Notes: generated by a model from the sequence alone, not told the origin. 39,875 nt of DNA from Deinococcales bacterium (GCA_046289535.1 JBKBVO010000001.1:1-39875); one strand, 5' to 3'. Positions 1 through 39,875 are shown, counted from the first letter of the stretch. Numbers and translations are program-made.

Positions 1-137
1 ACCAGCCCTTGGGTAAAGGCTTTGGGGTCGTGAGCATAGGTTTTGACTACAGCGTAGCTCTGCAGAGCGGCTCGAGGGCTTTGAGCAAAGCCACCAGACA
101 ATAAAATTACCGCAGCGACAGCAAAAAAGTGTTTCAT
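1..137 (-). CDS. Glutaminyl-peptide cyclotransferase-like secreted protein, N-terminal fragment (gene continues past the left edge)
   Basis: A reverse-strand ATG at 135-137 gives MKHFFAVAAVILLSGGFAQSPRAALQSYAVVKTYAHDPKAFTQGL. This reads as a signal peptide followed by the Y.V..Y.HD..AFTQGL motif typical of bacterial/plant-type glutamine cyclotransferases. The fragment is too short to appear in the ORF track. Confidence 0.45.
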   Translation of the reverse strand, partial: MKHFFAVAAVILLSGGFAQSPRAALQSYAVVKTYAHDPKAFTQGL

Positions 138-234
138 AAGGTCATGCTATTCAATGACAGCTTGTGAGTTATGAGTTGCGAAAGTTCAGGTGTTTTATTT
201 CTTTTTGTATTCCATTCAACAAGATTTTTTGAAT

Positions 235-2238
235 CTAGTGCTTTGTTTCAAGACGAATCGGTGTATTGTGGAATAAACTCCCCCCACCTAAATCGGTGAG
301 CTTCTGACTGGTCAGCGTGTTAATGCCCATACCGTCTGGCGCGTACTTGCCCCACCATATGCCTTCCACCACAACCACACCTCGAGTTGTCGCTTCGGTT
401 ACTTTGACGCGGCGCACCACGCTCCCCTGACGGCTCACAATCCGCACTTGCTGCCCATGCTCGAGTTTGTTGTCCACTGCGTCTTGAGGATGAATCATCG
501 CCGTGGGTTCGCCACCCTCTAAACCACGAATCTTCTCGAGTTCGCCATACGTTGTATTCAAAAAATGATGTGCTGGTGGAGTCATTAGCTTTAGTGGAAA
601 TTCTCTATCGGTGCAATCTTGCGGCTCGAGATAAGCTGGCGGTGGGTCGAGGTGGAATTTGCCATCTGTGGTAAATGCCGAGCCGTTTTGGTAGGGAAGA
701 AACTCTTGCGGCACGTGAAGACGCACATAGCCTTGTTGCTTTAGCTGTTCGAGTGTGATTCCAGCCACGTAGGGATGGTTTGTCTCGAGCAGCTGTTGCA
801 CAAGAGTTGGTGTATCCCAATAAACGCTTTCTTCTGTTACTCCAAGACGACGACCAAGTTCAGCAAAAATCCAAGAATTGGCTCGAGACTCAAAATATGG
901 CTCTGTAGCAGCTTGGTTATAGCTTAAATAGTAATGTCCGTAAGCCGTATAAATATCGTCGTGTTCTAAAAATGTTGTGGCAGGCAGTAGAAAATCTGCC
1001 AATTCAGCACTTTCGGTGTAGGCGTTTTCCAACACCACCGTGAGTAAATCTTCGCGTTTCATACCCGCTTGTACCGCTCCAGAATCGGGTGCGACTACTG
1101 CGGGGTTGCAGTTGTAAACAAACATCGCTTTGATTCCATTGTGCGGCTCGAGTTCGCGCCCAAGTTGGTTCATGTTCACGCGACGCGTCTGTTGTTTGAG
1201 CAAATGTAGTGCGCCTAGTTTTGAGCGGTTAAGCTGAAATGCTCCAGAAGTCGAAAGTAGTGCTCCGCCGCCGCGGTGTTTCCACTGCCCTGTCAGGATT
1301 GGCAAAATGGTGACGGCACGTTGTGCATTGCCGCCACCTTCATGGCGTGTCATACCATAACTGGTGCGGATAAAACTTGGGGTAGTGCTGGCATACTCAA
1401 GCGCAAGGGCTTGGATGGTTGCCGCCTGTATGCCTGTGGCTTCGACGGTGCGCGCAAGTGTCCAATCTTTGGCGGCTGCCACAAGTACTTCAAAACCTCG
1501 GGTTTGCTGCGTGACAAATTCTTTGTCCAGATACGGACTCGAGATGATGAAATTTGCCATGTACAGTGCCAATGCTGCATCCGTGCCTGGACGAATGCGA
1601 ATGTGTTGGTCGGCAAATAGGCTAGTTTTATTTTGATATGGGTCAATGTGGATAATCTTTGCTCCATTGCGCCGTGCTGCGGTCAAAAAAGGGGTAAGGT
1701 GGCTATTGGTCGCCAAGCTATTGATGCCCCAAAGCAGAATCAGTTTGGCGTGTAGTACATCCTCGGGGTTGGTACCTAAGCGCGCATTGCCATAGGTTTT
1801 AGCCCAAGCTGCACTGCCTGTCGTGGCACAGATGGTTTCCTCGAGTTCAATAGCTCCGAGTGCGCGAAAGAGCGCGTGTGCGTGTGCGCCTTGGTGCAAG
1901 CCCATGGTACCCCCGTAGTTATAGCGCAAAATGCTTTCTGCCCCGTGTTCGGCAATGATTGTTTGTACTCGAGCTGCGATTTCGTCTAAGGCTTCGTTCC
2001 ACGTGAGTTGCTGCCAGCGCCCTTGTCCTTTTTTGCCAACGCGTTTTTGTGGGTATTTGGGGCGAGTTTCCAAATAGGCGCGTTCGGGGTAGCGGTAAGT
2101 CTTGCTGCAAGCAAATCCCTTGGTGATGGGATGGTCTGGGTCTCCGGTAATTGTCATGGCGCGTCCGTTCTCGAGGGTGACAAGCAGCGAGCAGGCATCG
2201 GGGCAATCAAGTGGGCAAGTTTGGCGCACAACAGTCAT
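235..2238 (-). CDS. Molybdopterin (MopB superfamily) oxidoreductase with N-terminal Fe-S cysteine cluster
   Basis: 672-aa ORF. The N-terminus CPLDCPDACSL...GFACSK is a MopB-type 4Fe-4S motif, and the length and overall pattern fit molybdopterin oxidoreductases. I chose the ATG at 2238 (MTVVRQTCPLDC); the ORF-track start at 2253 is a TTG. Confidence 0.85.
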   Translation of the reverse strand: MTVVRQTCPLDCPDACSLLVTLENGRAMTITGDPDHPITKGFACSKTYRYPERAYLETRPKYPQKRVGKKGQGRWQQLTWNEALDEIAARVQTIIAEHGAESILRYNYGGTMGLHQGAHAHALFRALGAIELEETICATTGSAAWAKTYGNARLGTNPEDVLHAKLILLWGINSLATNSHLTPFLTAARRNGAKIIHIDPYQNKTSLFADQHIRIRPGTDAALALYMANFIISSPYLDKEFVTQQTRGFEVLVAAAKDWTLARTVEATGIQAATIQALALEYASTTPSFIRTSYGMTRHEGGGNAQRAVTILPILTGQWKHRGGGALLSTSGAFQLNRSKLGALHLLKQQTRRVNMNQLGRELEPHNGIKAMFVYNCNPAVVAPDSGAVQAGMKREDLLTVVLENAYTESAELADFLLPATTFLEHDDIYTAYGHYYLSYNQAATEPYFESRANSWIFAELGRRLGVTEESVYWDTPTLVQQLLETNHPYVAGITLEQLKQQGYVRLHVPQEFLPYQNGSAFTTDGKFHLDPPPAYLEPQDCTDREFPLKLMTPPAHHFLNTTYGELEKIRGLEGGEPTAMIHPQDAVDNKLEHGQQVRIVSRQGSVVRRVKVTEATTRGVVVVEGIWWGKYAPDGMGINTLTSQKLTDLGGGSLFHNTPIRLETKH

Positions 2239-2285
2239 GCTCGAGTCTAACAAAATACCGATGTACGATATGGTAGGATATAACC

Positions 2286-2540
2286 ATGAAAGCCAGTATC
2301 TATATACCAGACGAGTTGTATCAGGAGGTTCAAGAGTACCTCAAAATTTACCCACAAAAAAATCTGTCGGGTTTAATCCGCGAAGCACTCGAGGAAAAAC
2401 TTAAACCCAAAACTAGTCGCTTGCTCGAGTTGGCGGGTTTTGTTTCTTCAGACAAACTTGCTGGTCGTACCAAGGAAGATTGGGCGGAACTTCTGCGCCA
2501 AGGTAAGCACGAAGAACGTCAGCCAGTCACAAACTCTTAA
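2286..2540 (+). CDS. vapB: Ribbon-helix-helix (CopG/VapB-like) antitoxin
   Basis: 84 aa. MKASIYIPDELYQEVQEYLK...GLIREALEEKL is a typical RHH N-terminus. It lies 10 bp upstream of a PIN-domain ORF. Confidence 0.6.
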   Translation: MKASIYIPDELYQEVQEYLKIYPQKNLSGLIREALEEKLKPKTSRLLELAGFVSSDKLAGRTKEDWAELLRQGKHEERQPVTNS

Positions 2541-2549
2541 TTCTTAATT

Positions 2550-2956
2550 ATGCAGTTGCTTGTTCTTGATACTGGCGTATTACTTGCCTATTTTAACCAA
2601 AAGGATCATAGCCATGCCCAAGCACTGCGCGGCTTTCGTCAACTTGCCCGAGAAGGTACAAGATTAGTGGTTAGTTCAAGTGTTGTTTTGGAAACTGCAA
2701 AACGTATGCTTTTCGATGTCAGCCCTGTGGCAATGCGTGTGGCTACCGAAATCATGTTTGAAACCTTGGAAATTGTGGATACCACCAAACCTAGTATTCA
2801 AAATGCCCTTGATTTAATCATGCGCCTCAATCATCGCACCATATCACTTGAGGATGCTGTGGTCATCAATCTGGCACTGACCTTTAACGCCCCCGTTTGG
2901 ACATATAACTACCGCGATTTTGGCGGCATTAAAAATCTCGAGTTTTGGACACCTGC

Positions 2957-2960
<4 letters not shown>
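2550..2960 (+). CDS. vapC: PIN-domain ribonuclease toxin (VapC family)
   Basis: 136 aa. The N-terminal LVLDTGVLLAYF carries the first acidic PIN residue, and the size and pairing with a small RHH gene fit. The region is visibly more AT-rich than its neighbours. Confidence 0.7.
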
Positions 2961-5023
<2,063 letters not shown>

Positions 5024-5066: not shown

Positions 5067-5657
5067 ATGAAATGGGTCGTTTGGATACTGGTAGCACTGG
5101 GGCTAGGCTTTTTTTTAGGTCGCTCGAGCATCGTTCCGCCGCTCGAGAACAGCCCAGAAGTAACTTTTGCGCGAGATATGCGCGCTCATCATATGCAGGC
5201 AGTAGACATGGCAACGCGCATCCGCGACCGTACTGCAGACCTCAAATTGCGAATTCTGGCAACCGATATGCTCCTTACTCAACAAAATGAACTCGGGCAG
5301 ATGCAGGCTTGGTTAGACACTTGGGGGCTGCCATTGACGGGGCGCGACCCCGTGATGGGTGGAAATCAAGAGATGATGGGTATGACCACCCGAGCTGAAG
5401 TCTCGAGCCTGAGCATTTTGCCAGTGCGCGAAGCCGAAATTAAATTTTTGCAACTGATGATTCGTCACCATCAAGGCGGGGTGATGATGGCGCAGGAAGT
5501 CTTGTCAAAAAACCCTCGAGCACCTGTAAAGCAGCTTGCAAATAGCATTATGCACGGACAAAAAATCGAAATAGATGCCATGACCGATTATCTCGGGCGG
5601 CGCGGAGCCAAACCACTCGAGCCGTTAGCGCCAATGAAGATGAGCAATCACCGCTAA
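5067..5657 (+). CDS. DUF305 family protein (secreted or membrane-anchored, metal-stress associated family)
   Basis: Duplicated HH-containing helices (RDMRAHHMQAVDMA and MIRHHQGGVMMAQ) are typical of DUF305. Start set at the ATG at 5067 (MKWVVWILVALGLGFF signal/anchor). The upstream part of the track ORF overlaps udk. Confidence 0.75.
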   Translation: MKWVVWILVALGLGFFLGRSSIVPPLENSPEVTFARDMRAHHMQAVDMATRIRDRTADLKLRILATDMLLTQQNELGQMQAWLDTWGLPLTGRDPVMGGNQEMMGMTTRAEVSSLSILPVREAEIKFLQLMIRHHQGGVMMAQEVLSKNPRAPVKQLANSIMHGQKIEIDAMTDYLGRRGAKPLEPLAPMKMSNHR

Positions 5658-5677
5658 TGGCTAAGTAATACACCTGC

Positions 5678-5699
5678 CGTAACTCGAGTTACGCCTTTT
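5678..5699 (+). terminator. Weak terminator-like hairpin after the DUF305 gene (perfect 16-bp palindrome CGTAACTCGAGTTACG followed by CCTTTTG)
   Basis: Perfect palindrome at 5678-5693 centred on a CTCGAG site, followed by a short T-run. Confidence 0.3.
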
Positions 5700-5893
5700 G
5701 CGAGGTGTAAGGCGCTGGGTCTAGTCTGGTAGTTTCGGGCAGGAGCATTTAAGTAAGTGCTTCGCCCAAAAAGTCTTTGTATTAGGTCTGTTGCCGTGTT
5801 TACAAAGCGCCTCAGGTTGCATGGCTCGCCAAAAATCGTAGGTTTTTATTGGCAGCGTAGCACAATTACATTTTCATTGACGGTGTAGCACAA

Positions 5894-6391
5894 TTACAGC
5901 AGTTGGTCGTGGTTACTGTTGGTTTTGCCAAAAGCCCAACTCGCAAAAGCAAAAACCACAGGTCCAATCAGCAAAGTCAAAATCAGTTCGGGCAAAAAAC
6001 GATAGATGAGCGTCTCGAGCGAGATTAAATTTTGCCGTGTCCAATAATTGAGTGCAATAAACACAACCCATTTACCCAAAAGCGCTACAAATACCGCCGC
6101 TGCATGATGAAGGCTGCTCTCTGCCGATAAGCCACGGCGCACAAAGCTCGAGACAAATACCCCTGCCATGATTCCTGCGGCATGGAAGCCCAATAAACCC
6201 CAGCCTAAAATGTCTTGCAATAAACCAAGCCCATAACCCACACACAATGCCGCAAAGAGTGGCACTCGAGTTGCCACAAACAACGCCACCAATGAAAATA
6301 AATCTGGAGTGGACAAAAACGTAGGCAAGAGCACACCCAGCGAGCCCTGCAAGCCGAGCAAAACCACCATAAAAATAAGACGGCGAAACAT
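5894..6391 (-). CDS. mreD: Rod shape-determining protein MreD
   Basis: 165-aa polytopic membrane protein immediately downstream of mreC (adjacent stop and start), with an MreD-like GLLQD segment. Confidence 0.7.
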   Translation of the reverse strand: MFRRLIFMVVLLGLQGSLGVLLPTFLSTPDLFSLVALFVATRVPLFAALCVGYGLGLLQDILGWGLLGFHAAGIMAGVFVSSFVRRGLSAESSLHHAAAVFVALLGKWVVFIALNYWTRQNLISLETLIYRFLPELILTLLIGPVVFAFASWAFGKTNSNHDQLL

Positions 6392-7165
6392 CTAGGGCAG
6401 CCTCAATACATAAACTTGTTCGAGCGCAGAAATATCCACATGGGGGCTAATCTCGAGGGTTTGTCCGAGCGTGTCACCGCGTGAAGCCGAGACTCCTGTC
6501 ACTACACCCAATTGCACTGTAGGAAAAACACCACCAGGCGAATTGCTGCTAAAGACCAGATCGCCTACTTTGACCTTAGGGTTTTTGTAATCCTCGGCGC
6601 GAATAAACCGTCCCGAAACCCCACGGGCTACAGCAACCGAATTATAGCGTGCAACTTTAATACCCACACGAAAATCAGGGTCTAGGATGGTTCTCACCAG
6701 GGCGCTTGTTTCGTCTACCTGCATCACATCGCCAACCAAGCCGCGTGGCGTGGTTACTGCCATTTTTGGCTGTACACCATCTCTGCGTCCTTTATTGATA
6801 CGAATTTCTGCATTGAGTGCACCAAATTGAAAAGCGATAACTTGAGCATCGGTGAGTACCGAATTGGTTTGGGTACGGATAATCTGTTGCACTTCGGTTT
6901 GTTTTTGCACTTGTTGCTCGAGTTTATTGACCCGCAATTCGAGTTCTCCAACTTTGTTTTTGAGGTTGGTGTTTTCGGTATGCAGGTCACGCTCCAAAAT
7001 CAAGGCTTCAAAAAAGAAACGCAAATTTAAGCCGCCTGTGGTAAAAATCTGCCACAAAGGTGTGATACCGCTCGAGAGCGCCAAAGGTGCTTTAGGCGCA
7101 AAGCGTGTGCTGATGAGTGACAGCACCAACAAAACCCCAAAAAGCAAGCCGATTCTCGAGTTCAT
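6392..7165 (-). CDS. mreC: Rod shape-determining protein MreC
   Basis: 257 aa with an N-terminal anchor, a coiled-coil (NLKNKVGELELRVNKLEQQVQKQ) and a C-terminal beta-rich domain with GLVG.V and the G.FP..QLGVV motif. Confidence 0.85.
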   Translation of the reverse strand: MNSRIGLLFGVLLVLSLISTRFAPKAPLALSSGITPLWQIFTTGGLNLRFFFEALILERDLHTENTNLKNKVGELELRVNKLEQQVQKQTEVQQIIRTQTNSVLTDAQVIAFQFGALNAEIRINKGRRDGVQPKMAVTTPRGLVGDVMQVDETSALVRTILDPDFRVGIKVARYNSVAVARGVSGRFIRAEDYKNPKVKVGDLVFSSNSPGGVFPTVQLGVVTGVSASRGDTLGQTLEISPHVDISALEQVYVLRLP

Positions 7166-7794
7166 GCTTTCACCCAGGGTAATAGCTTTAGCCCCGCAGC
7201 ATTTGCAGTTTCGAGCAGACAGGCAATGGGCAGCCCGACCACATTAAAGTAATCACCTTCGATGCGTGCAACAAGAGCCATTCCAAGCGCCTGAATCCCA
7301 TAACCACCCGCTTTGTCCAGTCCTTCGCGGCTACTCGCATAGCCTAGAATTTCGGCATCGCTCAGGGCGCGAAACTTTACTCGAGTCACCTCGACGGCAC
7401 TGCTCGAGAGATTTGCGCCTACCAAGGCAATACCCGTGTAGACCTCATGCCAATTTCCCGAGAGCTGGCGAATAAATTGGGCATTCTCTGCAATGCTGGC
7501 AGGTTTATTGAGGATGACCTCACCAATAGCAACGGTGGTGTCTGCTGCCAGTACTATGGCGTTTGGCTCGAGCCGCGCAACCTCTTGGGCTTTTTGCAGT
7601 GCCAATTGTTGTACCATGCGGCTTGGATTTTTTTCTTGACTGGTTTCGTCTATGTCGGCAGCGCGTACCCGAAACACAATACCCAAGCGCTCTAACAATT
7701 CGCGCCGGCGGGGGCTAGCTGATGCCAACACAAGATCAAACACAAACGATAGTTTAACCCGAGATTGTGAACTGGGTGAAGTGTATGTTTGCAT
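7162..7794 (-). CDS. maf: Maf-like nucleoside triphosphate pyrophosphatase
   Basis: LVLASASPRRRELLERLGI is the canonical Maf N-terminus, and there is a 4-bp overlap with the mreC start. The start is uncertain: ATG at 7794, or GTG at 7743 which would give a typical Maf length. Confidence 0.85.
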   Translation of the reverse strand: MQTYTSPSSQSRVKLSFVFDLVLASASPRRRELLERLGIVFRVRAADIDETSQEKNPSRMVQQLALQKAQEVARLEPNAIVLAADTTVAIGEVILNKPASIAENAQFIRQLSGNWHEVYTGIALVGANLSSSAVEVTRVKFRALSDAEILGYASSREGLDKAGGYGIQALGMALVARIEGDYFNVVGLPIACLLETANAAGLKLLPWVKA

Positions 7795-8507: not shown

Positions 8508-9452
8508 ATGATTGCTTTGATGGTTACACTCGAGGACATACAAGCCGCAGCCGCACGCATTCGCGGGGTTGCTCGCCACACCCCACTACTGCCACTTGAA
8601 GGTGGTATTTACCTCAAGCCCGAAAACCTACAAGTCACAGGGAGCTTCAAATTTCGCGGCGCATACAACGCAATCTCGAGCTTAGGACAGGTGCGCGGCG
8701 TGGTCGCCGACTCGAGCGGTAACCACGCCCAAGGGGTCGCGGCAGCTGCAAAAATGCACAATATCCCCGCGACAATTGTGATTCCCGAAAATGCTCCGAA
8801 TATCAAGGTTCAACGCACCAAGGCATGGGGTGCAGAAATTGTGCGCTGCTCCAATGCTTCGAGCGAACGGATGCGTATAGCTATGGAGATTCGTGACCAG
8901 CGCGGTCTCGAGTATATTGCCCCCTTCGATGATGCACGTATGATTGCCGGACAAGGTACGATTGGACTCGAGATTCTGCGCGATATGCAGGATGTAACCG
9001 CGGTTTTGGTTTGTGTTGGTGGAGGCGGTTTGCTCGGCGGCATTGCCAAAGCAATCAAAAGCCTGTCGCCAAAAACCAAAGTGATTGGCGTAGAACCCGA
9101 ACTCGCCGCAGATGCCAGAGATTCATTTTATGCACGTGAACGCCGCGCTTGGGATGCCAGTTTGGTCACACGCACCATCTGCGATGGGGTACGGACACAG
9201 GGCGTTGGCGAGCTGAATTGGGAAATCATTAAAAACCATGTGGACGACATTATTACCGTTTCTGAAGAAGCGGTTCTCGAGGCGATGCGCTACCTTTTTC
9301 TCGAGACAAAATTAGCTGTCGAACCAACTGGTTCGCTGACTGCAGCAGCGATTCGCTCGGGAGCCTTTGAGCCGCTTGGCAAGACGGTGTGCGTCGTATC
9401 AGGCGGTAACTACGACCCGCAAATTCTGGGACAGGTCTTGGGCGCTACTTAA
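8508..9452 (+). CDS. PLP-dependent threonine/serine dehydratase (short, catabolic type without regulatory domain)
   Basis: 314 aa with the PLP-lysine motif SFKFRGA, the glycine loop GGGGLLGG, and fold-type II PLP enzyme architecture. Confidence 0.8.
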   Translation: MIALMVTLEDIQAAAARIRGVARHTPLLPLEGGIYLKPENLQVTGSFKFRGAYNAISSLGQVRGVVADSSGNHAQGVAAAAKMHNIPATIVIPENAPNIKVQRTKAWGAEIVRCSNASSERMRIAMEIRDQRGLEYIAPFDDARMIAGQGTIGLEILRDMQDVTAVLVCVGGGGLLGGIAKAIKSLSPKTKVIGVEPELAADARDSFYARERRAWDASLVTRTICDGVRTQGVGELNWEIIKNHVDDIITVSEEAVLEAMRYLFLETKLAVEPTGSLTAAAIRSGAFEPLGKTVCVVSGGNYDPQILGQVLGAT

Positions 9453-12150: not shown

Positions 12151-12194
12151 AAATTCAAAAATAGCACAAAAAAAAAATTTATAGCGTGAAATTA

Positions 12195-14093
12195 TTAGCA
12201 CTCGAGCAAGCCCGAAACTTCCTCCCAGCGCGAGATTTTCTCGAGCAAGAGCGCCTCGATTTGGGCATTGCGCTTACCCAGAAGCGCGAAACTCGAGTCG
12301 GCTTTGGGAGCGGCAAGCTCTTGCAAAAGCGCTTTCTGCTCGCTCTCGAGCCTGGCGATTTCCTGCTCTAGGTTTTTTAGCTCCTCGCGCAATTTCCACG
12401 GATTGAACGACTTTTTAGGCGCAGCCGCTCGAGTCGGCTCACGCTTTTGGGGCACGGGGGCGTTTTGCTGCATCAGCGCTCTGTGTTTTTCCATGGCATA
12501 GGCATAGCCGCCCATGTAGGTCTGCACGCCGCCATCCTCGACAATCCAAATCTGGTTGGCAACGTTTTCGATAAAGCGCCGGTCGTGCGAAACCATCAGC
12601 AACGTACCCTCAAAACTCAACAGCGCCGCTTCGAGCTTCTCGAGCATCTCCATATCGAGGTGATTGGTGGGTTCATCGAGCACCAAAAAGTTGCATTCTA
12701 AAAGTGACAGTTTAAGCAGCGCCAAGCGCGCCCGTTCACCACCAGAGAGGCTCGAGATTTTTTTATCCTTGCTCGAGAAGGGAAATAAATACGCACCCAA
12801 AATGTCAAAGACCTCTTGATCCTTTTCAAAAAAGGGCTTGATTTCCAAAAACAAGGTGCTGTTCGGGTCTATGCCACGCAGCTGCTGGTCGTAGTAGCCA
12901 AGTTTTACCCTCGAGCCAAGGCGCACGCTGCCGCGCGCATCGTCGGAAGGTTCAAAGCCAAGCATGGTCTTGAGCAGTGTGGACTTACCCGCGCCATTGC
13001 GCCCAATAATCGCGATGCGCTCGCCCTTGCGAATCGTGGCTTCAAAGCCTTTAAACAATGACCTCGACCCGAATTGGCGTGAAAGATATCCGCCCTGCCA
13101 GACCACTTCGCCCGTTTCCGAGGTCTTAAAACTCACTGTGGCAGCACCCTGCTCGGCAGCGAGTCCATCTAAAACATTCTCGGCGTAGCGCTCGGCGCGT
13201 TTTGCCATAGCACGGGCGCGAATAGCGAGTTTTTCGTTACTGTGACCCCATTGGCGGGTTTTTTCCGCGCTTTGCTCCAAACGTTCGAGTTCGCGCAATT
13301 GATTGATGCGCGTACGCTCATGGATTTCGCGCTCGGCAAGCCATGCTTTTTTGAAAGCGGTGTAATTGCCGGGGTAACGCCGCACCTCTTTGTTAAAAAC
13401 CAGTGCCGTATCGGTTGCCACTGCATCCAAAAAAGCGCGGTCGTGCGAAATTATCAGGACCGCTCCGGGATAACCACGCAAAAAGCCCTCGAGCCATTCG
13501 AGCATCACAATATCGAGGTGATTGGTCGGCTCGTCCAAAAGCAGCAGTTCGGGTTGCGCGACCAAAATCTGCGCCAGTGCCAAGCGCGTGCGCTCACCGC
13601 CGCTCAAGCCATCCACACGCTCGCTTTCGCGCCCCAAAAAGCCAAGGTGCGACAACACCGTATCGCGCCGTGCGGCGCGCCCATAACCGCCGCGCAGGCG
13701 GTAGTGCTCCTCGAGTTCGTGGTATTGCCCTAGGCTCTGCGGATTCTCAAGCTCTGGTTCGAGTTGACGCATTTGGCGCTCGAGGGCATCAAATTCGACA
13801 AAAGCACTCTCGATTGCTTCGAGAATACTCTGTCCACTCGGAAACACCGGGTCTTGCGCCAAGACCCGCACCGACAGGTCTGGGGCGCGCAAAACCTTGC
13901 CATTGGTCGGTTTTTCTGCCCCGGAAAGTAAACGCAAAATTGTGGTCTTGCCCGCCCCATTGCGTCCCACCAGCGCCAAGCGCTCGCCTTCTTGAATTGT
14001 TAGGTTTACACCAACCAAAACATCTTGCGAGCCGTAAAATTTTTCGACATTCTCGAGTCCGACCAACATGGGCGCAGTGTACCGCGTTTGCAC
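12195..14093 (-). CDS. ABC-F family ATPase (two ABC domains plus C-terminal coiled coil, Uup/EttA-like)
   Basis: Two Walker A motifs (GRNGAGKTT, GRNGAGKST), two LSGGE signatures, no transmembrane domain and a charged coiled-coil tail. Alternative ATG start at 14069. Confidence 0.9.
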   Translation of the reverse strand: MQTRYTAPMLVGLENVEKFYGSQDVLVGVNLTIQEGERLALVGRNGAGKTTILRLLSGAEKPTNGKVLRAPDLSVRVLAQDPVFPSGQSILEAIESAFVEFDALERQMRQLEPELENPQSLGQYHELEEHYRLRGGYGRAARRDTVLSHLGFLGRESERVDGLSGGERTRLALAQILVAQPELLLLDEPTNHLDIVMLEWLEGFLRGYPGAVLIISHDRAFLDAVATDTALVFNKEVRRYPGNYTAFKKAWLAEREIHERTRINQLRELERLEQSAEKTRQWGHSNEKLAIRARAMAKRAERYAENVLDGLAAEQGAATVSFKTSETGEVVWQGGYLSRQFGSRSLFKGFEATIRKGERIAIIGRNGAGKSTLLKTMLGFEPSDDARGSVRLGSRVKLGYYDQQLRGIDPNSTLFLEIKPFFEKDQEVFDILGAYLFPFSSKDKKISSLSGGERARLALLKLSLLECNFLVLDEPTNHLDMEMLEKLEAALLSFEGTLLMVSHDRRFIENVANQIWIVEDGGVQTYMGGYAYAMEKHRALMQQNAPVPQKREPTRAAAPKKSFNPWKLREELKNLEQEIARLESEQKALLQELAAPKADSSFALLGKRNAQIEALLLEKISRWEEVSGLLEC

Positions 14094-17332: not shown

Positions 17333-18001
17333 CTACAAAGGACGAGGTAATCCCAAAGCTTGAAGAATCCCAAGCATTACCCCAAGGATTGGAAGGCGCA
17401 CAAAAGCCAAAATACCGGTCAGAGACAACACTAAAAAAATCAGCATAAACCCAAACGGTGTGCGGCTCATCCACTGCTCCAAACTGGCAAGAGTGCGTTT
17501 AATAGTACTGTTTCCGACAGCAAAGAGCGCCTTTGCACCATCGAGTGGCGGGATTGGAAAAATAAAAATTGCAGCCAAGGAAATGCTATTAAACGCCCCC
17601 AAGACCAGTCCAAAAATCACCGAGCGCAGGCTGTCATCGCTACCCGCAAAGGCAGTGAGCAAAGAAGCTAACACAAGCATCAAAAACGCCCACACGAGCA
17701 TCGAAAGTGGCCCCATAAGCCACACACTCGCCTCTCTGGCATATTGGCGATTGTACAAACGCACCGGCACCGAATTCGGCAGCGCAAAGCCAAAAATCGC
17801 CAGCCAAATCCATGAAAAACTATCCAGGTGCAGAGTCGGGTTGTTAGTGCTGGCAAAACCGCGCTGCTTGGCGCTGGGGTCGCCAAAAGCATTGGCTAAA
17901 AGTGCCTGAAAAACATTGTGCAGCACCAGACCAAACGCCAAAATAAAAAGTGCAATCAAGTAGGCAAGCGGGTCTTGCCCAAGGTATTGAACAAAGAACA
18001 T
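17333..18001 (-). CDS. Site-2 protease (M50) family membrane protein with degenerate catalytic motif
   Basis: 222-aa polytopic protein. The layout matches small M50 proteins (..GD..A...G....NP..H.D, GP.S, FIFPIPPLDG), but the HExxH position reads HNVFQ. Confidence 0.6.
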   Translation of the reverse strand: MFFVQYLGQDPLAYLIALFILAFGLVLHNVFQALLANAFGDPSAKQRGFASTNNPTLHLDSFSWIWLAIFGFALPNSVPVRLYNRQYAREASVWLMGPLSMLVWAFLMLVLASLLTAFAGSDDSLRSVIFGLVLGAFNSISLAAIFIFPIPPLDGAKALFAVGNSTIKRTLASLEQWMSRTPFGFMLIFLVLSLTGILAFVRLPILGVMLGILQALGLPRPL

Positions 18002-18069
18002 AGCTAAACCCTAACACGTTTTTAGGGCAAACTCGAGCCTGAAAAAAGCAAAGTGCTAGACTGTAGCGC

Positions 18070-20652: not shown

Positions 20653-20960
20653 GGAGTGATTTTACCCCTCGAGTGTATCAATTCGTTTAGAATCTTCGGC
20701 TCGAGTCAAGCTACCGTAACGTGCCCAGGTATGATTCAAAAGCAACATAACGACAGGCTATTGTCAATAAAAAGCCGACCCCAATGTGTTAAAGGTACTT
20801 GTGTATTTATTTTTTAACCACGAGTATCCGCAGTACTTTGGTTCGGTTCTCGCCATAAAATTATACGAAGCACCACATGCCTTTACAACAACTCTAGCAT
20901 TTGCCAAGCCCAAGGCAGTATGCTTTACACCAAACAAACGTTTATTAGGAGACGATCCCC

Positions 20961-29008: not shown

Positions 29009-29064
29009 CCAAAGTAAGTCTCGAGCAATAAGTTTTAAGCTGTCTGCTAATTGAGGAGCAAAAT

Positions 29065-30819
29065 ATGCAGGTTCATAAGTATGATATTATCGTCGTTGGT
29101 GCTGGAGGAAGCGGCTTAATGGCAGCACTTTATGCCAAAAACAATGCCCAAGGAAGTGTAGCGGTCATCTCCAAGCTTTATCCAACACGTTCACACACAG
29201 GCGCAGCACAGGGTGGGGTCGGAGCCGCTCTTGGCAACGTAGATGAAGACCACTGGGAATGGCATATGTTCGACACCATCAAGGGCGGCGATTACTTAAC
29301 TGACCAAGATGCAGCCGAAATCTTTGCCAAGGATGTAATCGAAGCCGTGCTCGAGTTAGAGCACATGGGGCTACCATTTAGCCGTCTACCCAATGGCAAA
29401 ATTGCACAACGTCGCTTTGGTGGACACACCCGTGAATTCGGCAAAGCCCCTGTGCACCGCGCTTGCTATGCCGCCGACCGCACTGGTCATATGATTTTAC
29501 AAACCCTCTACCAGCAAAGCATCAAACAGGGTGTGACTTTTTTTAACGAATATGTCGTGTTAGACATGATTCTCGAGGACGAACCAGACGGCAAAGTTTG
29601 CAAGGGCGTTGTTGCTTGGGAAATGGCAACAGGCGAAATCCATGTTTTCCATGCCAAGAGTGTGGTGCTGGCAACAGGCGGTAACGGACGTATCTTTAAG
29701 GTCACATCCAATGCCCATGCCTTGACCGGCGACCTCACCAGCATCGCCTACAGGCGCGGCATTCCGCTCGAGGACATGGAATTTTACCAGTTCCACCCGA
29801 CTGGATTGTATAAACTCGGCGTGCTTTTAACCGAAGGTGTACGCGGTGAAGGCGGAATTTTACGCAACGCCTCGGGCGAACGCTTTATGGAACGTTATGC
29901 TCCAACAATTAAAGACCTTGCACCGCGCGATATTGTCTCGCGCAGTATGTACTTTGAAATCCGCGAGGGGCGTGGCTGTGGTCCAAATAAAGACTATATT
30001 CATCTTGATGTCACCCATATTGACCCCAAGATTCTCGAGGAGCGCTTGCCCGACATCATGGACTTTAGCCGCACCTATTTGCGCGTCGAGCCAACCAAAG
30101 AGCCTGTGCCGATTCAACCCACCGCGCACTACACCATGGGTGGGATTCCAACCACGCTGGATGGTGAAGTAATTTACGGCACCACCAACCAAGAGAAAGT
30201 GCGCGGTTTGTATGCAGCAGGTGAGGTTGCTTGTGTATCCTTGCACGGCGCAAACCGCCTTGGCACCAACTCCTTGGGTGACCTGATTGTCTTCGGGCGC
30301 AGGGCTGGCGTGGCAGCCGCCAAATACGCCAACAGTGCCACACTCGAGCCACTACCACACGATGCCGATGCGCGTGCCAAGGATTTGGTCTCGAGAACCA
30401 AGAATGCAAGCGGCAAAGAAAGTGTCGCCCAAATCCGAGCCGAAATGCAGCAAACCATGCAGGACAACGCCAGTGTTTTCCGCACCGAAGAAACGCTCTC
30501 TGCCCAAGTCGAAATCCTGCGTGACTTAAACGCCCGCTACCGCAACATTGGCATCTCTGACCGCTCGGAAAAATACAACACCGAACTGCTCGAGGCAATC
30601 GAACTCGGATTCCTTTTAGACAACGCCGAAGCCCTGGTACACAGCGCTCTGAATCGTCGTGAATCGCGTGGTGCACACGCTCGAGAAGACTATACAGAGC
30701 GCGACGACACCAAGTTCTTAAAGCACACTATGTGCTACCAGCTCGAGCCGGGCAAAACCGAAATCAAGTGGAAGGACGTGGTGCTCGGTAAGTACGCACC
30801 AAAGCCGAGAACGTATTAG
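29065..30819 (+). CDS. sdhA: Succinate dehydrogenase flavoprotein subunit SdhA
   Basis: VVGAGGSGL FAD fold, the RSHTGAAQGG covalent-FAD histidine context, and the HPTG and ESRGAH motifs. Confidence 0.95.
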   Translation: MQVHKYDIIVVGAGGSGLMAALYAKNNAQGSVAVISKLYPTRSHTGAAQGGVGAALGNVDEDHWEWHMFDTIKGGDYLTDQDAAEIFAKDVIEAVLELEHMGLPFSRLPNGKIAQRRFGGHTREFGKAPVHRACYAADRTGHMILQTLYQQSIKQGVTFFNEYVVLDMILEDEPDGKVCKGVVAWEMATGEIHVFHAKSVVLATGGNGRIFKVTSNAHALTGDLTSIAYRRGIPLEDMEFYQFHPTGLYKLGVLLTEGVRGEGGILRNASGERFMERYAPTIKDLAPRDIVSRSMYFEIREGRGCGPNKDYIHLDVTHIDPKILEERLPDIMDFSRTYLRVEPTKEPVPIQPTAHYTMGGIPTTLDGEVIYGTTNQEKVRGLYAAGEVACVSLHGANRLGTNSLGDLIVFGRRAGVAAAKYANSATLEPLPHDADARAKDLVSRTKNASGKESVAQIRAEMQQTMQDNASVFRTEETLSAQVEILRDLNARYRNIGISDRSEKYNTELLEAIELGFLLDNAEALVHSALNRRESRGAHAREDYTERDDTKFLKHTMCYQLEPGKTEIKWKDVVLGKYAPKPRTY

Positions 30820-32698: not shown

Positions 32699-33050
32699 GG
32701 GATTGGTTCCAAGCCTTTGTGAAAGTATACACGCATATCTCGGGACAGTGGTCTAAAAGCCGTTATTTTCGTCTGGAATACAGCAAATTTAAGTAAGTCT
32801 CAAGCAAGGGCGCCGTGTTGGCAAAACACTTAAAGACATTGCAACAATTGCTCTGCGCAAGGGCGACTTTCGCTGGCTTTAGCTTTTTGCAGTGGTTTTT
32901 AAGCCACTTTCGAGCGCCTGATTGCCTTGGTGCAAAGCGGTATCAATCTGTTCAGCATTACTCGAGAGATAAAACCCAAAATACCCCGTGAAATAAACGT
33001 GGTTTAAGCCTTGCTCCTGTCTTTGGTTTTGCTCAAGTCGTCTGGAATAC

Positions 33051-33184: not shown

Positions 33185-33188
33185 AAGG

Positions 33189-33220
33189 AAATAACCTCAC
33201 GAATGTGGGGTTATTTTTAT
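33189..33220 (+). terminator. Intrinsic terminator after tRNA-fMet
   Basis: Stem ATAACCTCAC / GTGGGGTTAT (one G-U pair), loop GAAT, followed by TTTTATTT. Confidence 0.65.
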
Positions 33221-33292
33221 TTACCGACTCGAGTCATACAGGTTTTCTTAAAGTTTGATTTTGCCACCTCAAAACACAGTAGAATAAGGGAC

Positions 33293-34069
33293 GTGAAACC
33301 GCTTTTGTCCTTAAACTGGAAGCTGCAAAAAGGTCCTGCCGAAAGTTATGCTTGGTGTAGAGCGCTGCTCGAGCAACTCCCCGAAGAGCTGCCCGCCGAC
33401 CTCGCGATTATGGCACCTACAATCAGCTTAGAGCGTGTCAGCAATGCCTTACGCGGTAGCCCAGTGCAGTGGGGAGCACAGGATGTCTCCAAGCACCAAA
33501 AAGGCGCTTACACTGGCGAAACCGCCCCACAATGGCTCAACGAACTCGATTGCAGCTATGTGATCATCGGACACTCCGAACGGCGTGATTATCACGGCGA
33601 GACAGACATCATAGCCGGCGAAAAGACTGCTGTTGCCATCCGTGCTGGAATCAAACCTATTCTTTGCGTCGGTGAAAAATTAGATGTACGCGAAGCAGGA
33701 AACGCAGAAAGCCACACCCTAAGGCAGCTCGAGACCGCATTGGCTTGGCTCACACCAGAAGTGCTTGCAGACGAATTCAGAGGGGTTCTCGAGTGGCTGA
33801 CCATTGCCTACGAGCCGATTTGGGCTATTGGCACGGGCAGAACCGCAACACCAGAAGATGCCGAGAACATGGGTAATGCCATGCGCAGCTGGTTTGTAGA
33901 GCGCTATGGACAAGCAGGAAATAACTTGCGTCTTTTATATGGTGGCAGTGTTAAGCCAGACAACATTAAAGCCTTGTGCAGCCGCCAAAATGTCAATGGT
34001 GCACTGGTTGGTGGAGCGAGCCTTGAACTCGAGAGCGTCCTTGAGATGCTCGAGGCATTGGAAGGTTAA
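33293..34069 (+). CDS. tpiA: Triosephosphate isomerase
   Basis: The GTG at 33293 is preceded by AAGGGA. Motifs LNWK (for GNWK), IGHSERR, AYEPIWAIGTG and GGASL are present. The track ORF start further upstream would overlap the tRNA terminator. Confidence 0.9.
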   Translation: MKPLLSLNWKLQKGPAESYAWCRALLEQLPEELPADLAIMAPTISLERVSNALRGSPVQWGAQDVSKHQKGAYTGETAPQWLNELDCSYVIIGHSERRDYHGETDIIAGEKTAVAIRAGIKPILCVGEKLDVREAGNAESHTLRQLETALAWLTPEVLADEFRGVLEWLTIAYEPIWAIGTGRTATPEDAENMGNAMRSWFVERYGQAGNNLRLLYGGSVKPDNIKALCSRQNVNGALVGGASLELESVLEMLEALEG

Positions 34070-35511: not shown

Positions 35512-35516
35512 AGCTG

Positions 35517-35553: not shown

Positions 35554-35573
35554 TGCTCTCGAGACACTGCAAT

Positions 35574-38362: not shown

Positions 38363-38425
38363 CTCACCCTAACAGTGCTAGGGCGAGGTGCAATCTGACT
38401 CGAGTCGTATTTCGAGCCAAGTGAT

Positions 38426-39661
38426 TTACTTCTTGATAATCGCCGCTTTGATCTGCTCTACGCCCTTGGCATGCAAACCTGCAATATCGGCATTGGCGGT
38501 CTTGATCGAGAGGTTCAGTGCATCGCCCCAAGGACCCCAAACCTGACCCATTTCGGGAATGTTTGGCATTGGAATACCCTTGGCGATGGCTGCACCGAAG
38601 CCTGCAGCGACTGGGTCTTTGCCCAATTGGCGCACGGCGCTCTTGGAAATTGGCAAGCGCCCACCTGTCTTAAAGAGGCTGACTTGGTTGGCGTTGCTGA
38701 CCAAGAATTTGGCGAACTCAGAAGTGATTGCTTTTTGCTTGGAGTAGGCATTCATCACCACGCCACGCACACCAATGAATGGTTGGAAGTCTTGGGTTGC
38801 ACCCGTTGGGCGTGGTGGCAAACCAATACCATAGTCAATCTTGGCTTTCTTGATGTCTGCCATCTTCCAAGGACCGTTCAGCCACATGGCAAGATTACCC
38901 TTGGCAAAGAGGTCGGTTTGCAAGCCATCGTCTTCCGCGCCTTCGGGGATCAGCTTAAACTTGAAGCGCAAATCGTTGAGCATCTGCGCCGCTTTGACTG
39001 CACCAGCATTGGCAAGACCAATGTCATTGATATTCAAGCTGCCATCTTTATTCTTACCAAAAACATATGCACCAAAGGCGCGGTAGAAGCCGTGCATGTG
39101 GTATTGAATACCAATTGGTGAGAGGAAGCCAAACTGCTGCTTCTCGAGATTGGTGAGGTTTTGCGAAACCTTAATAAATTCATCCCAAGTCTTGGGGATA
39201 CCGCCGGGCAACAACTTCTTATTGTAAATCAAAGCCACGGCTTCGCCGAACATCGGGATACCAAAGGTGCGTCCCTTGTAGTTAAACGCGTCCAAACCGC
39301 TTTCGGCGACATCGGCTTTGAAGCCTACGGTCAGGTACTTATCCATTGGCTCGAGTACACCGGCGCTAGCGAACTGACCGACTTGGTCATGCGGGATTGT
39401 CGCAATCAAATCCGGACCCTCGCCTTTTGGTGCGCTTTGAATAAATTTGTCGCGGTTTTCGCCCAAGGGCACCGCCACAACCTCGAGTTTCGCACCCTTA
39501 GCAGCGGGGGTCTTCTCGAAAGCGTTTGCTGCTGCCGAGAACCACTTCAGTTCTTCGGTACCAAAGTCCGTCCAGATTGTAATCTTGCTCTGCCCTTGTA
39601 CGGTTGCACCAGCAACCAGTGCCAAGCTCAGCGCCGCAACTGTTCCAATAACCTTTTTCAT
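38426..39661 (-). CDS. malE: Maltose/maltodextrin-type extracellular solute-binding protein
   Basis: The ATG at 39661 is preceded by GGAGGAAGG, followed by signal peptide MKKVIGTVAALSLALVAGA. GPDLIATIPHDQVGQFASAGVLEP parallels E. coli MalE [21 protein letters not shown]. The upstream part of the track ORF is probably untranslated. Confidence 0.85.
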   Translation of the reverse strand: MKKVIGTVAALSLALVAGATVQGQSKITIWTDFGTEELKWFSAAANAFEKTPAAKGAKLEVVAVPLGENRDKFIQSAPKGEGPDLIATIPHDQVGQFASAGVLEPMDKYLTVGFKADVAESGLDAFNYKGRTFGIPMFGEAVALIYNKKLLPGGIPKTWDEFIKVSQNLTNLEKQQFGFLSPIGIQYHMHGFYRAFGAYVFGKNKDGSLNINDIGLANAGAVKAAQMLNDLRFKFKLIPEGAEDDGLQTDLFAKGNLAMWLNGPWKMADIKKAKIDYGIGLPPRPTGATQDFQPFIGVRGVVMNAYSKQKAITSEFAKFLVSNANQVSLFKTGGRLPISKSAVRQLGKDPVAAGFGAAIAKGIPMPNIPEMGQVWGPWGDALNLSIKTANADIAGLHAKGVEQIKAAIIKK

Positions 39662-39875
39662 GTTCCTTCCTCCGTGGGCTTCAAGCCGTTCATCCGAACT
39701 TGGTAGCGCTTCCACCGCAAAGGAGACACGAAAACGCCCGAGAACAGATTGAATCATGCTTTTGCCTCGTTTGGATGCTAACACAAAATTGTTAGAAGTG
39801 GAAGTACGCGCGACAAAACAAGAACACCAATAGAACAAAGGCACGCGTACCTCATTCATGAAGTTATCCCTGGTA

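Follow-up and report, generated by a model that had tools for sequence, protein, structure and literature searches.

The hyper-abundant palindrome CTCGAG in the chromosome of an uncultured Deinococcales lineage

Results

CTCGAG saturates the window

The DNA analysed here, referred to as the window, is a stretch of 39,875 bp with a GC content of 51.3% from the housekeeping chromosome of an uncultured, lower-GC Deinococcales lineage. Sites were phased against a set of 37 ORFs, 34 of which have Pfam support. A sequence-only reading of this stretch had reported 206 CTCGAG sites against an expectation of about 10, and our scripted count returned exactly 206, hundreds rather than tens, with 10.2 expected from base composition. 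This corresponds to 5.2 sites per kb, or one per 194 bp, so that 3.1% of all bases in the window lie inside a site. Markov models of order 1, 2 and 3 predicted 5.8, 18.4 and 58 copies, and the observed-to-expected ratio (O/E) is 20 at order 0, 35 at order 1, 11 at order 2 and 7 under synonymous shuffling. The order-4 expectation is high (179) because the 5-mers themselves are mostly made of the CTCGAG site. CTCGAG is the top-ranked hexamer, and the second and third, TCGAGC (98) and GCTCGA (83), both overlap it. Also as previously described, the control palindrome GAATTC occurs near expectation (9 copies) and one-off variants of CTCGAG are sporadic, with 1-21 copies each. The transition neighbours are not depleted (CTTGAG 13, CTCAAG 14, TTCGAG 21, CTCGAA 9), and transversion neighbours occur 1-14 times each against about 10 expected. 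Almost all other 6-bp palindromes are depleted and ten of them are absent; GGCC has 8 copies where about 170-190 are expected, and GATC has 35 against about 100. An avoided restriction-modification site was rejected as an identity for CTCGAG, which is 20-fold enriched while most other palindromes are avoided. HIP1 proper, the iterated palindrome of cyanobacteria, was rejected as well, since the word is a different one (CGATCG has 0 copies) and the lineage is not cyanobacterial.

Of 38 ORFs, 35 contain at least one site; all three phases are represented, and so are the spacers. The site coordinates reported earlier were mostly right, with small slips at three positions (1538 rather than 1539, 1968 rather than 1969, and 35558 rather than 35568). 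The field, its one sizeable gap and the sites outside genes are as follows.

1..39875, no strand: CTCGAG field, 206 sites
17333..18001, minus strand: sole sizeable site-free ORF (669 bp; Poisson P=0.03), without a Pfam match and with 0.9% Glu
5683..5688, no strand: intergenic site
18032..18037, no strand: intergenic site between divergent genes
20668..20705, no strand: intergenic pair of sites at 20668 and 20700, 32 bp apart
29020..29025, no strand: intergenic site between sdhD and sdhA
32961..32966, no strand: site upstream of tRNA-Met, within a spurious ORF only
33228..33233, no strand: site probably in the 5' leader of the gene for triose-phosphate isomerase (ORF start over-extended)
35558..35563, no strand: intergenic site
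38399..38404, no strand: intergenic site

The site at 33228 falls in the 5' end of the triose-phosphate isomerase ORF, which is over-extended, and is probably intergenic too.

The excess is independent of codon usage and has altered the proteome

We compared the coding sites with a shuffle of synonymous codons, which preserves both the proteins and their codon usage. Against 197 coding sites observed, the shuffle gave 27.7±4.9, with a maximum of 40 in 500 shuffles, and permutation of codons gave 11.9. By phase, 129 sites read CTC-GAG, 23 read xCT-CGA-Gxx and 45 read xxC-TCG-AGx, where 23.2, 1.5 and 2.9 were expected; in-frame CTC-GAG thus makes up 65% of the sites, and both off-frame phases are enriched about 15-fold. 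Phasing by hand in two genes, 235-2253 (minus strand) and 18070-20040 (plus strand), had pointed the same way, and these genes carry 17 sites in frame and 9 off frame. The intergenic sites that had been noted are likewise borne out: the 2,479 bp of non-ORF DNA hold 9 sites, a density of 3.6 per kb where about 0.26 would be expected. The excess therefore acts on the DNA word and is independent of codon-pair bias, as the earlier reading had argued; it persists off frame under synonymous shuffling, and between genes.

The accumulation of CTCGAG has in turn reshaped the proteome, about doubling Leu-Glu. There are 198 Leu-Glu dipeptides where 84 are expected, compared with 71 for Glu-Leu. CTC-GAG encodes 129 of the 198, although codon usage predicts about 10%, and without these pairs 69 Leu-Glu remain against the 84 expected, so that the surplus is attributable to one codon pair of twelve. 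The suggestion that the DNA word had shaped the proteins is thereby upheld. The reverse order, GAG-CTC (GAGCTC), encodes only 1 of the 71 Glu-Leu pairs, and 23 of the 68 copies of the rare Arg codon CGA in the window fall inside CTCGAG sites.

Sites lack flanking consensus and are mildly regular in spacing

Flanking positions carry at most 0.08 bit of information each, in keeping with the earlier observation of no extended consensus, and CTCGAG is therefore not a dispersed repeat: a REP or MITE was rejected, as nothing is common to the sites beyond the core word. For an uptake signal of the USS/DUS type we looked for an asymmetric core of 9-12 nt with a flanking consensus, and found instead a 6-bp palindrome with these near-empty flanks. 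Spacing had been described as roughly exponential, which holds as an approximation; it is in fact mildly regular, with a coefficient of variation of 0.83 where random placement gives 0.99±0.07 (P=0.005), and 13 gaps are shorter than 25 bp when 24 would be expected. A related locus, L002, is also more evenly spaced than random (P=0.0002).

Saturation is a property of the clade

Over 4.8 kb the window is identical (100%) to a Logan read assembly (L081), CTCGAG sites included, and the excess is therefore not an assembly artefact. Loci from related Deinococcales metagenome-assembled genomes (MAGs), seven of seven and all from different assemblies, carry 4.6-7.2 CTCGAG per kb at a GC content of 51-61%; their O/E under synonymous shuffling is 4.3-10.7, and that of Leu-Glu is 2.1-2.4. 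The presence of sites in all phases and in non-coding DNA also holds in five relatives. Saturation is thus a lineage property of this uncultured Deinococcales clade. Elsewhere in the phylum, loci from Meiothermus and Calidithermus show an approximately 2-fold excess (O/E 2.2-2.8), the O/E is 2.0 in 50 kb of a plasmid from Allomeiothermus silvanus, Thermus loci are not enriched and Deinococcus loci avoid the word. The Thermaceae excess is mostly in frame and may be of the codon-pair type. A single phylum thereby provides a natural gradient for finding the cause, from avoidance (Deinococcus) through neutrality (Thermus) and mild enrichment (Meiothermus, Calidithermus) to saturation.

Sites are conserved and have replaced amino acids

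Two of the related loci, L002 and L004, are 84% identical over 11.7 kb and could be compared site by site. They have 60 of 79 CTCGAG sites (76%) in common, versus 45% of all hexamers (P=4e-8). CTC codons are conserved at 94-97% inside sites versus 50-64% outside, and GAG codons at 91% versus 50-59%; for the CGA and TCG codons of the two off-frame phases the excess has the right direction and is not significant at these sample sizes. Among unshared sites, 19 of 31 differ from CTCGAG at two or more positions, versus about 38% expected. The same test of sites and codons was used to infer selection on HIP1 (PMC5861425). By itself, conservation above background cannot tell selection from repair that continually restores sites.

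Individual sites in sdhA reveal how the word arises.

29767..29772, plus strand: in-frame site where SdhA has a universally conserved Leu-Glu
30034..30039, plus strand: in-frame site, common to 6 of 7 clade relatives
30343..30348, plus strand: in-frame site, Leu-Glu in 7 of 7 clade relatives
30390..30395, plus strand: off-frame site xxC-TCG-AGx, Val-Ser-Arg in the window
30680..30685, plus strand: off-frame site GCT-CGA-GAx at a conserved Ala-Arg-Glu, made via the rare Arg codon CGA

Only one of the seven in-frame SdhA sites falls on an ancestral Leu-Glu; the others replace different residues. At 29767..29772 the outgroups mostly have CTGGAG or CTAGAG, and the site therefore came from synonymous codon choice alone. 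The counterpart of 30034..30039 in Thermaceae and Deinococcus is Ile-Glu or Ile-His, with ATCGAG in several, so that this site arose via Ile to Leu. At 30343..30348 the outgroups (Thermaceae, Deinococcus and other phyla) have FV, YA, FY, YH or HV, and the site is a clade-specific replacement of two residues that created CTCGAG. Clade relatives have Val-Ala-Arg/Lys at 30390..30395, or Ile-Glu-Arg in one.

Discussion

Our best reading is that CTCGAG saturation is an independent, denser counterpart of cyanobacterial HIP1. More specifically, we tentatively favour a methylation-linked iterated palindrome of the HIP1 kind, accumulated and retained chromosome-wide and read via an orphan m6A methyltransferase. 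The precedent comes from SMRT methylomes of three Thermaceae with active Type II m6A CTCGAG methyltransferases that have no cognate endonuclease, M.Mru1279II (Meiothermus ruber), M.Mch9957IV and M.Mhy14884I; CTCGAG is methylated at 99.5% of sites in M. ruber, 94.1% in Calidithermus chliarophilus and 94.6% in Marinithermus hydrothermalis (PMC4752239 and its supplement). A partnerless enzyme is also present in Nocardia, where it accompanies site clusters at the replication origin (PMC4752239). Within Thermaceae enrichment does not follow the methyltransferase consistently: A. silvanus has no CTCGAG methylation in its methylome (PMC4752239), yet the O/E of its plasmid stretch is near that of Meiothermus and Calidithermus. 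The genes of the 39,875-bp window, the part of the genome covered here, include no methyltransferase, and none was found for the clade; methylation here is therefore an extrapolation from this sister family. Nor could a competence, recombination or repair gene be linked to CTCGAG.

Under the favoured reading, a bare 6-bp word outside any longer repeat would accumulate and then stay everywhere in the chromosome. New sites would come from ordinary point substitutions at near-cognate words, by synonymous CTG to CTC changes, by Ile, Val or Phe to Leu before Glu, or through rare CGA or TCG codons, and once formed a site would far outlast the surrounding sequence. The likeliest reader, by the precedent of Thermaceae, would be an orphan gamma-class N6-adenine methyltransferase making CTCGm6AG, and the dense, even carpet of methylated sites could then serve as a chromosome-wide self-mark for a short-distance DNA transaction. 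One candidate is preferred uptake or recombination of own-species DNA, as reported for HIP1, which when methylated boosts natural transformation up to about 100-fold (bioRxiv 10.1101/2024.09.10.611283); the other is a parental-strand label used in repair or replication. It is possible rather than probable that a HIP-like system evolved a second time, independently, with CTCGAG as a 6-bp m6A self-label read by one of these two processes.

The alternative that survives best is a neutral mutational ratchet, in which sequence-specific repair or gene conversion makes and restores CTCGAG at no benefit to the cell, for example by an enzyme that nicks at the XhoI word or by patch repair linked to it, as in Elhai's model for HIP1. 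We consider it rather unlikely. It accounts for sites in all phases and spacers and for the amino-acid costs, continuous restoration would also give high apparent conservation, and the many unshared L002/L004 sites with two or more differences could hint at templated multi-base changes. However, one-off neighbours are not depleted, and the shortage of closely spaced sites better fits diminishing returns. The sub-variant that couples a methyltransferase to very-short-patch repair is disfavoured because the documented CTCGAG enzymes of the phylum make m6A rather than m5C, which leaves no deamination mismatch as substrate, and because the transition neighbours, on which a ratchet of this type would draw, are not depleted.

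Quite unlikely, in our estimate, is a methylation-independent signal for uptake or recombination that molecular drive has spread, whereby a competence or recombination protein favours CTCGAG DNA and recombination keeps importing sites. Like the USS of Pasteurellaceae and the DUS of Neisseria, CTCGAG is genome-wide, roughly even, located in genes with a peptide imprint and conserved among relatives, and within the phylum Thermus and Deinococcus are naturally competent. HIP1 itself is now proposed as an uptake sequence (bioRxiv 10.64898/2026.06.24.733823), but its effect on transformation required methylation (bioRxiv 10.1101/2024.09.10.611283). A 6-bp palindrome is moreover far less specific than asymmetric signals of 9-12 nt, and no receptor is known or was found. 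Uptake by Thermus is, to our knowledge, not sequence-specific.

A role in chromosome architecture that is independent of methylation, with CTCGAG sites arrayed for binding by a nucleoid-associated protein or some other DNA-binding protein, is improbable. The word is palindromic, chromosome-wide and mildly regular, and HIP1 has been tied to nucleoid structure through periodicity (PMC5861425), but there is no candidate protein, the 40-kb window is short relative to a periodicity of 10-90 kb, and a site every 190 bp that overrides protein sequence would be extreme. A translational preference for CTC followed by GAG, or protein-level selection for Leu-Glu, is highly improbable: it would suit the in-frame majority of sites, and perhaps the mild Thermaceae excess, but as the main cause it is refuted by the off-frame and intergenic excess, and the Leu-Glu surplus is confined to a single codon pair. 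A dispersed repeat or mobile element with an XhoI site has a practically negligible probability, as does an artefact of assembly or cloning; these are refuted by the bare flanks, by in-frame sites within conserved housekeeping genes and by recurrence in seven MAG loci and the Logan assembly, with nothing found in their favour.

Hyper-abundant palindromes have so far been essentially cyanobacterial, with a function only now linked to methylation-dependent transformation. An independent case in a second phylum, with another word, probably another methylation chemistry and a protein-altering density, indicates that the phenomenon is general, and makes it possible to ask, beyond what a single lineage allows, which genes accompany saturation and whether the shared factor is methylation, competence or repair. 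If the reading as a second HIP-like system is true, CTCGAG would be denser than any other functional oligonucleotide known from bacterial genomes, under a pressure that places a site every ~190 bp and rewrites conserved proteins, and cultivable Meiothermus, with the same methyltransferase specificity at lower density, would be a tractable comparator for the 30-year-old HIP1 question. In practice, CTCGAG gives a strong signature for binning MAGs of the clade and for host assignment, the Leu-Glu bias affects phylogenetics, and clade DNA, unless methylated, would be cut by XhoI to pieces of about 200 bp.

Comparison with known systems

Among known systems, the Dam site GATC of Gammaproteobacteria is an m6A palindrome of an orphan enzyme, read hemimethylated after replication by SeqA and MutH, and its usefulness declines with distance, which would favour dense sites. 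As far as we know, GATC has neither a strong genome-wide excess nor an effect on protein sequences, and the window contains fewer copies than expected. The USS and DUS of Pasteurellaceae and Neisseriaceae occur genome-wide at about one copy per kb, evenly and inside genes with peptide effects, and spread by uptake bias and recombination. In contrast to CTCGAG, they are 9-12 nt long, asymmetric and not known to be methylation-dependent, and CTCGAG is about 5 times denser. The partnerless m6A methyltransferases of Thermaceae act on the same word in the sister family of this lineage, but the Thermaceae and Nocardia work concerns methylation and origin clusters, not genome-wide saturation. Our full-text literature search found no description of a CTCGAG-saturated genome, in agreement with the earlier reading.

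The closest parallel is HIP1 (GCGATCGC), the highly iterated palindrome of cyanobacteria, which is 15-300-fold over-represented and whose function is still debated (PMC4390886, PMC5861425). For the HIP class in the sense of Elhai 2015 and Xu et al. 2018, a member is a short G+C-rich palindrome at or near the top of the over-represented words of equal length, with an O/E from about 15 upwards; CTCGAG ranks first among hexamers with an O/E of 20 (order 0), occurs in all frames and in non-coding DNA, and is conserved in both its sites and their constituent codons. Alternate HIPs, each with a matching methyltransferase, are GGCGCC in Calothrix PCC 7103 and GGGATCCC in Synechococcus JA-3-3Ab and JA-2-3B'a (PMC4390886), and GGCGCC reaches an O/E of 15.5 in the related strain D253 (Elhai). 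They resemble the present case as lineage-specific switches to another palindrome, a hexamer included, but are cyanobacterial and of lower density (GGCGCC in D253), and none is CTCGAG. HIP1 and CTCGAG are both short, G+C-rich palindromes found in all reading frames and spacers and conserved in relatives beyond codon preference; HIP1 is associated with orphan methyltransferases, for which the CTCGAG clade has the precedent of the Thermaceae literature. CTCGAG differs in its word, in its length (6 versus 8 bp) and in its phylum, Deinococcota, and its modification is likely gamma-class m6A, by analogy, rather than the m5C or m4C plus Dam-like m6A of HIP1. At 5.2-7.2 per kb against 0.3-2.7 per kb it is 2-17 times denser, as the description HIP1-like but several-fold denser had anticipated, and it leaves a large imprint on the proteome, with Leu-Glu at about 2.3 times expectation.

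CTCGAG dominates an ordinary chromosomal segment

A scripted count of the window (39,875 bp, GC 51.3%) returned 206 exact CTCGAG sites, or a site every 194 bp on average; together they make up 3.1% of the bases. The figure is identical to that of an earlier sequence-only reading, which had itself scanned 206 sites, and lies in the hundreds rather than the tens; the control palindrome GAATTC, reported there at an expected 9-10 copies, was counted 9 times. CTCGAG is the top hexamer of the window, the runners-up TCGAGC (98) and GCTCGA (83) both overlap it, and its single-base variants have 1-21 copies each. Base composition predicts 10.2 copies, and Markov models of orders 1, 2 and 3 predict 5.8, 18.4 and 58, respectively. 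The order-4 expectation of 179 was dropped as uninformative because the underlying 5-mers are mostly made up of the site itself, with 206 of 235-242 CTCGA/TCGAG occurrences lying within CTCGAG. The commonest hexamers not derived from CTCGAG are A-runs following C or G (CAAAAA 80, CCAAAA 62, GCAAAA 61); these are strand-asymmetric (TTTTTG 39), and AT skew reaches +0.24 at 36-38 kb.

The ORFs encode ordinary chromosomal functions, and no DNA methyltransferase, restriction enzyme or repair nuclease was found among them.

Features of the window
2286-2960: PIN-domain gene preceded by a small ORF, which together probably form a VapBC-type toxin-antitoxin pair; GC 45%, below its surroundings, yet with 3 CTCGAG sites
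9445-12201, minus strand: 918-aa protein with G8 and CEMIP beta-helix domains, an architecture better known in animal hyaluronidase-like proteins
33203-33300 region: start of the longest triose-phosphate isomerase ORF, about 30 codons ahead of the Pfam domain; the gene probably begins further downstream, and site 33228 would therefore be intergenic
Other products: molybdopterin oxidoreductase, Mur ligase, MreC, Maf, ABC-F ATPase, GH42 beta-galactosidase, malic enzyme, SdhCDAB, prephenate dehydratase, ABC sugar transporter; one tRNA-Met

The window's SdhA is 94% identical to that of one uncultured 'Deinococcales bacterium' MAG and 85-89% identical to those of six further Deinococcales MAGs, including the complete 5.08-Mb chromosome OZ252252.1; identity to the outgroups is 66-70% (Thermaceae) and 65-67% (Deinococcus). 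A Logan read assembly is identical to the window over 4.8 kb, CTCGAG sites included.

The excess resides in the DNA word

We phased the sites against 37 ORFs and compared them with 500 synonymous shuffles, in which synonymous codons are exchanged within each gene, thereby keeping the protein and the per-gene codon usage.

CTCGAG sites by phase (observed; expected)
CTC-GAG, in frame: 129; 23.2
xCT-CGA-Gxx: 23; 1.5
xxC-TCG-AGx: 45; 2.9
All coding sites: 197; 27.7±4.9 (maximum of 500 shuffles, 40)
Non-ORF DNA (2,479 bp): 9, or 3.6 per kb; about 0.26 per kb

Permutation of whole codons predicted just 11.9 coding sites. Since the off-frame phases and intergenic DNA are enriched too, codon-pair bias is excluded as the main cause, as the sequence-only reading had argued from hand phasing; its phases were right, and three of its coordinates had slipped, by one base at 1538 and 1968 and by ten bases at 35558. 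Selection for Leu-Glu in proteins was likewise rejected. This dipeptide occurs 198 times in the window's proteins versus 84 expected from amino-acid frequencies (Glu-Leu, 71), and the surplus is all CTC-GAG, which encodes 129 of the 198 where codon usage predicts about 10%; the 69 left without it are at or under expectation. GAG-CTC, the reverse codon order and the SacI word, encodes 1 of 71 Glu-Leu. Rare codons are caught up in the sites as well (a third of CGA, 23/68, and 45/160 TCG), and 35 of 38 ORFs hold at least one site, with no strong outliers. The signal thus acts on the DNA word and not on codons or proteins.

The word also stands in isolation. Each of the 12 positions on either side carries at most 0.08 bit, the one bias being a slight excess of G at -1 and of C at +1, which bears out the earlier impression of no extended consensus; with no sequence shared by the flanks, CTCGAG is therefore not a dispersed repeat, and a repeat family is excluded. 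Spacing had been described as roughly exponential, which is nearly so, but the gaps are significantly more even than random (CV 0.83 versus 0.99±0.07, P=0.005), and only 13 of them are shorter than 25 bp where 24 are expected. In the related locus L002 the evenness is stronger (CV 0.77, P=0.0002).

CTCGAG is the only strongly enriched palindrome in the window, and most others are depleted: GGCC occurs 8 times versus about 170-190 expected, GATC 35 versus about 100, and CCGG 45 versus 105-145. Of the 6-bp palindromes, ten are missing entirely, including CGATCG, GTCGAC, CCCGGG, GGGCCC, CGGCCG and AGGCCT, and GAGCTC, GGATCC and TGGCCA have one each. Palindrome depletion is what restriction pressure commonly leaves behind, and avoidance of this severity suggests a past of many restriction systems; against that background the enrichment of CTCGAG stands out all the more. 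Two other palindromes exceed expectation, AGCGCT (34 copies, O/E 1.7) and CTATAG (9 copies, O/E 3.4).

Saturation is a property of the lineage

Density and observed/expected ratios (O/E) were compared across the phylum, where "clade" denotes the uncultured lower-GC Deinococcales lineage of the window and related MAG loci.

CTCGAG across Deinococcota
Clade (7 MAG loci, GC 51-61%): 4.6-7.2 sites per kb; shuffle O/E 4.3-10.7, Leu-Glu O/E 2.1-2.4 (5 loci)
Meiothermus and Calidithermus: 2.0-3.4 sites per kb; shuffle O/E 2.2-2.8; Leu-Glu O/E 1.05-1.6
Thermus: 0.7-1.0 sites per kb; shuffle O/E 0.6-0.7
Deinococcus (L019, L051, L057, L059; 18-22 kb; GC 61-67%): 0-0.05 sites per kb, 0-1 site each; O/E 0-0.2 (3 loci)

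The clade sample, window included, holds 681 sites in 121 kb, and its excess extends to all three phases and to uncalled DNA. CTCGAG saturation is therefore a lineage property within a gradient across the phylum, and one phylum holds both strong avoidance, in Deinococcus, and saturation of the same word. An assembly or cloning artefact is excluded, as the Logan read assembly and seven MAG loci from different assemblies carry the same property. In two Thermus loci (L009, L011) the TaqI word TCGA is almost confined to CTCGAG, at 15/17 and 12/14 occurrences.

A metagenome scan for three clustered CTCGAG sites yielded 120 contigs, most of them high in GC and soil-like, and none from the low-GC clade. 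A triple-site pattern scan of IMG/VR found saturated viral or proviral contigs of GC 58-69% (L144, L181, L188, L198, L127, L095) with 3.3-6.8 sites per kb, CTCGAG being the top hexamer in several; L188 carries a head-morphogenesis/portal-like gene. No methyltransferase was seen in these contigs, and a large ORF, in L181, encodes a ParB-family protein instead.

Sites arise by point changes and are retained

In an 11.7-kb alignment of the clade loci L002 and L004 (84% identity), 60 of 79 L002 sites are shared, whereas the shared fraction among all hexamers of the alignment is 45% (binomial P=4e-8). The window shares 10/15 sites with L001 (77% identity; background 24%) and 3/18 with L005 (69% identity; background 12%). 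We then repeated the control of codon conservation inside versus outside sites from work on HIP1, the highly iterated palindrome of cyanobacteria (PMC5861425). CTC codons are conserved at 94-97% in sites versus 50-64% elsewhere (Fisher P=7e-5, 6e-4), and GAG codons at 91% versus 50-59%. The off-frame CGA and TCG codons mostly followed the same trend, TCG being reversed in one direction, and did not reach significance.

In SdhA, one of seven in-frame sites falls on a universally conserved Leu-Glu and was made by a synonymous CTG->CTC change; the others correspond in relatives to Ile-Glu, Val-Glu, Tyr-Glu or Leu-Asp. The site at window position 30343 is Leu-Glu in all 7 clade relatives, as in the window, and Phe-Val, Tyr-Ala or His-Val in relatives outside the clade. 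Point changes at near-cognate words, non-synonymous changes among them, thus create sites that are subsequently retained. Where only one of L002 and L004 has a site, 19/31 counterparts depart from CTCGAG by at least two bases (about 38% expected at 16% divergence); fast-evolving contexts or multi-base events are possible causes. These data establish a chromosome-wide force on the hexamer itself, which prevails over codon choice and over residues of moderate conservation and preserves sites more than local constraint would.

CTCGAG methyltransferases in related bacteria

SMRT data for the sister family Thermaceae list three active Type II m6A enzymes for CTCGAG, each without a listed partner endonuclease: M.Mru1279II of Meiothermus ruber (99.5% of sites methylated), M.Mch9957IV of Calidithermus chliarophilus (94.1%) and M.Mhy14884I of Marinithermus hydrothermalis (94.6%; annotated as Eco57I family) (PMC4752239, supplementary table). 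Nocardia has an orphan CTCGAG enzyme, with site clusters at the origin (PMC4752239). By analogy, any modification of the word in the clade would probably be m6A. The link between methyltransferase and enrichment is not clean within Thermaceae: the published methylome of Allomeiothermus silvanus lacks CTCGAG methylation (PMC4752239), and a 50-kb stretch of its plasmid pMESIL01 has a CTCGAG O/E of 2.0. Part of the Thermaceae excess, which is roughly 2-fold and mostly in frame, may therefore reflect a codon-pair effect, and a DNA-level cause is clearly needed only for the 4-11-fold, all-phase excess of the clade.

As the probe for a clade enzyme we employed M.TaqI, a gamma-class methyltransferase that recognises TCGA. 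Its sequence was checked and is identical to PDB 1aqj. Nothing was found by tblastn against all fetched loci, and a word-indexed protein search gave TaqI orthologues only. A HMMER search of cluster representatives yielded 150 family members, which were ranked by Leu-Glu excess and by how near their composition was to the window or Meiothermus. Two of these, P0204 and P0238, come from genomes with 0.06-0.3 CTCGAG per kb and so are not from this clade. Xanthomonas plasmid matches belong to a PstI-type system, and viral loci encoding TaqI-family enzymes were not CTCGAG-rich. The clade's own CTCGAG methyltransferase was not found by these indirect routes, which gave TaqI orthologues or CTCGAG-poor genomes.

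Possible mechanisms and comparison with HIP1

In cyanobacteria that have an alternate palindrome, a methyltransferase of matching specificity is also present (PMC4390886), and the conservation of HIP1 argues for selection (PMC5861425). Methylated HIP1 sites raise natural transformation by about 100-fold at most (bioRxiv 10.1101/2024.09.10.611283), an effect that led to the proposal of HIP1 as an uptake signal (bioRxiv 10.64898/2026.06.24.733823). Guided by these parallels, we tentatively favour a reading in which a partnerless m6A methyltransferase would methylate the dense CTCGAG carpet and a short-range DNA transaction would read the mark. Candidate transactions are uptake or recombination of kin DNA and post-replicative strand marking. 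Such a self-mark would account for both the even spacing and the site retention.

The main rival, a neutral repair ratchet, appears unlikely; it is weakened because one-off neighbours of CTCGAG are not depleted and because m6A offers VSP-type repair no deamination substrate. Methylation-free molecular drive through uptake seems quite improbable, and an array of protein-binding sites is a distant prospect.

Full-text searches of PMC (7.7 M papers) and bioRxiv yielded no account of CTCGAG being over-represented in Deinococcota or other bacteria, in line with the sequence-only reading, which knew of no such saturated genome; the sole match for CTCGAG as an enriched motif was honey-bee intergenic DNA. 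HIP1 is the nearest known system, and the earlier suggestion that CTCGAG is the denser of the two holds: cyanobacterial HIP densities are 300-2,700 per Mb (PMC4390886), whereas CTCGAG here reaches 5,200-7,200 per Mb. It extends HIP-like iterated palindromes to a new phylum and a new word, probably with m6A chemistry, and its imprint on the proteome is unusually large.
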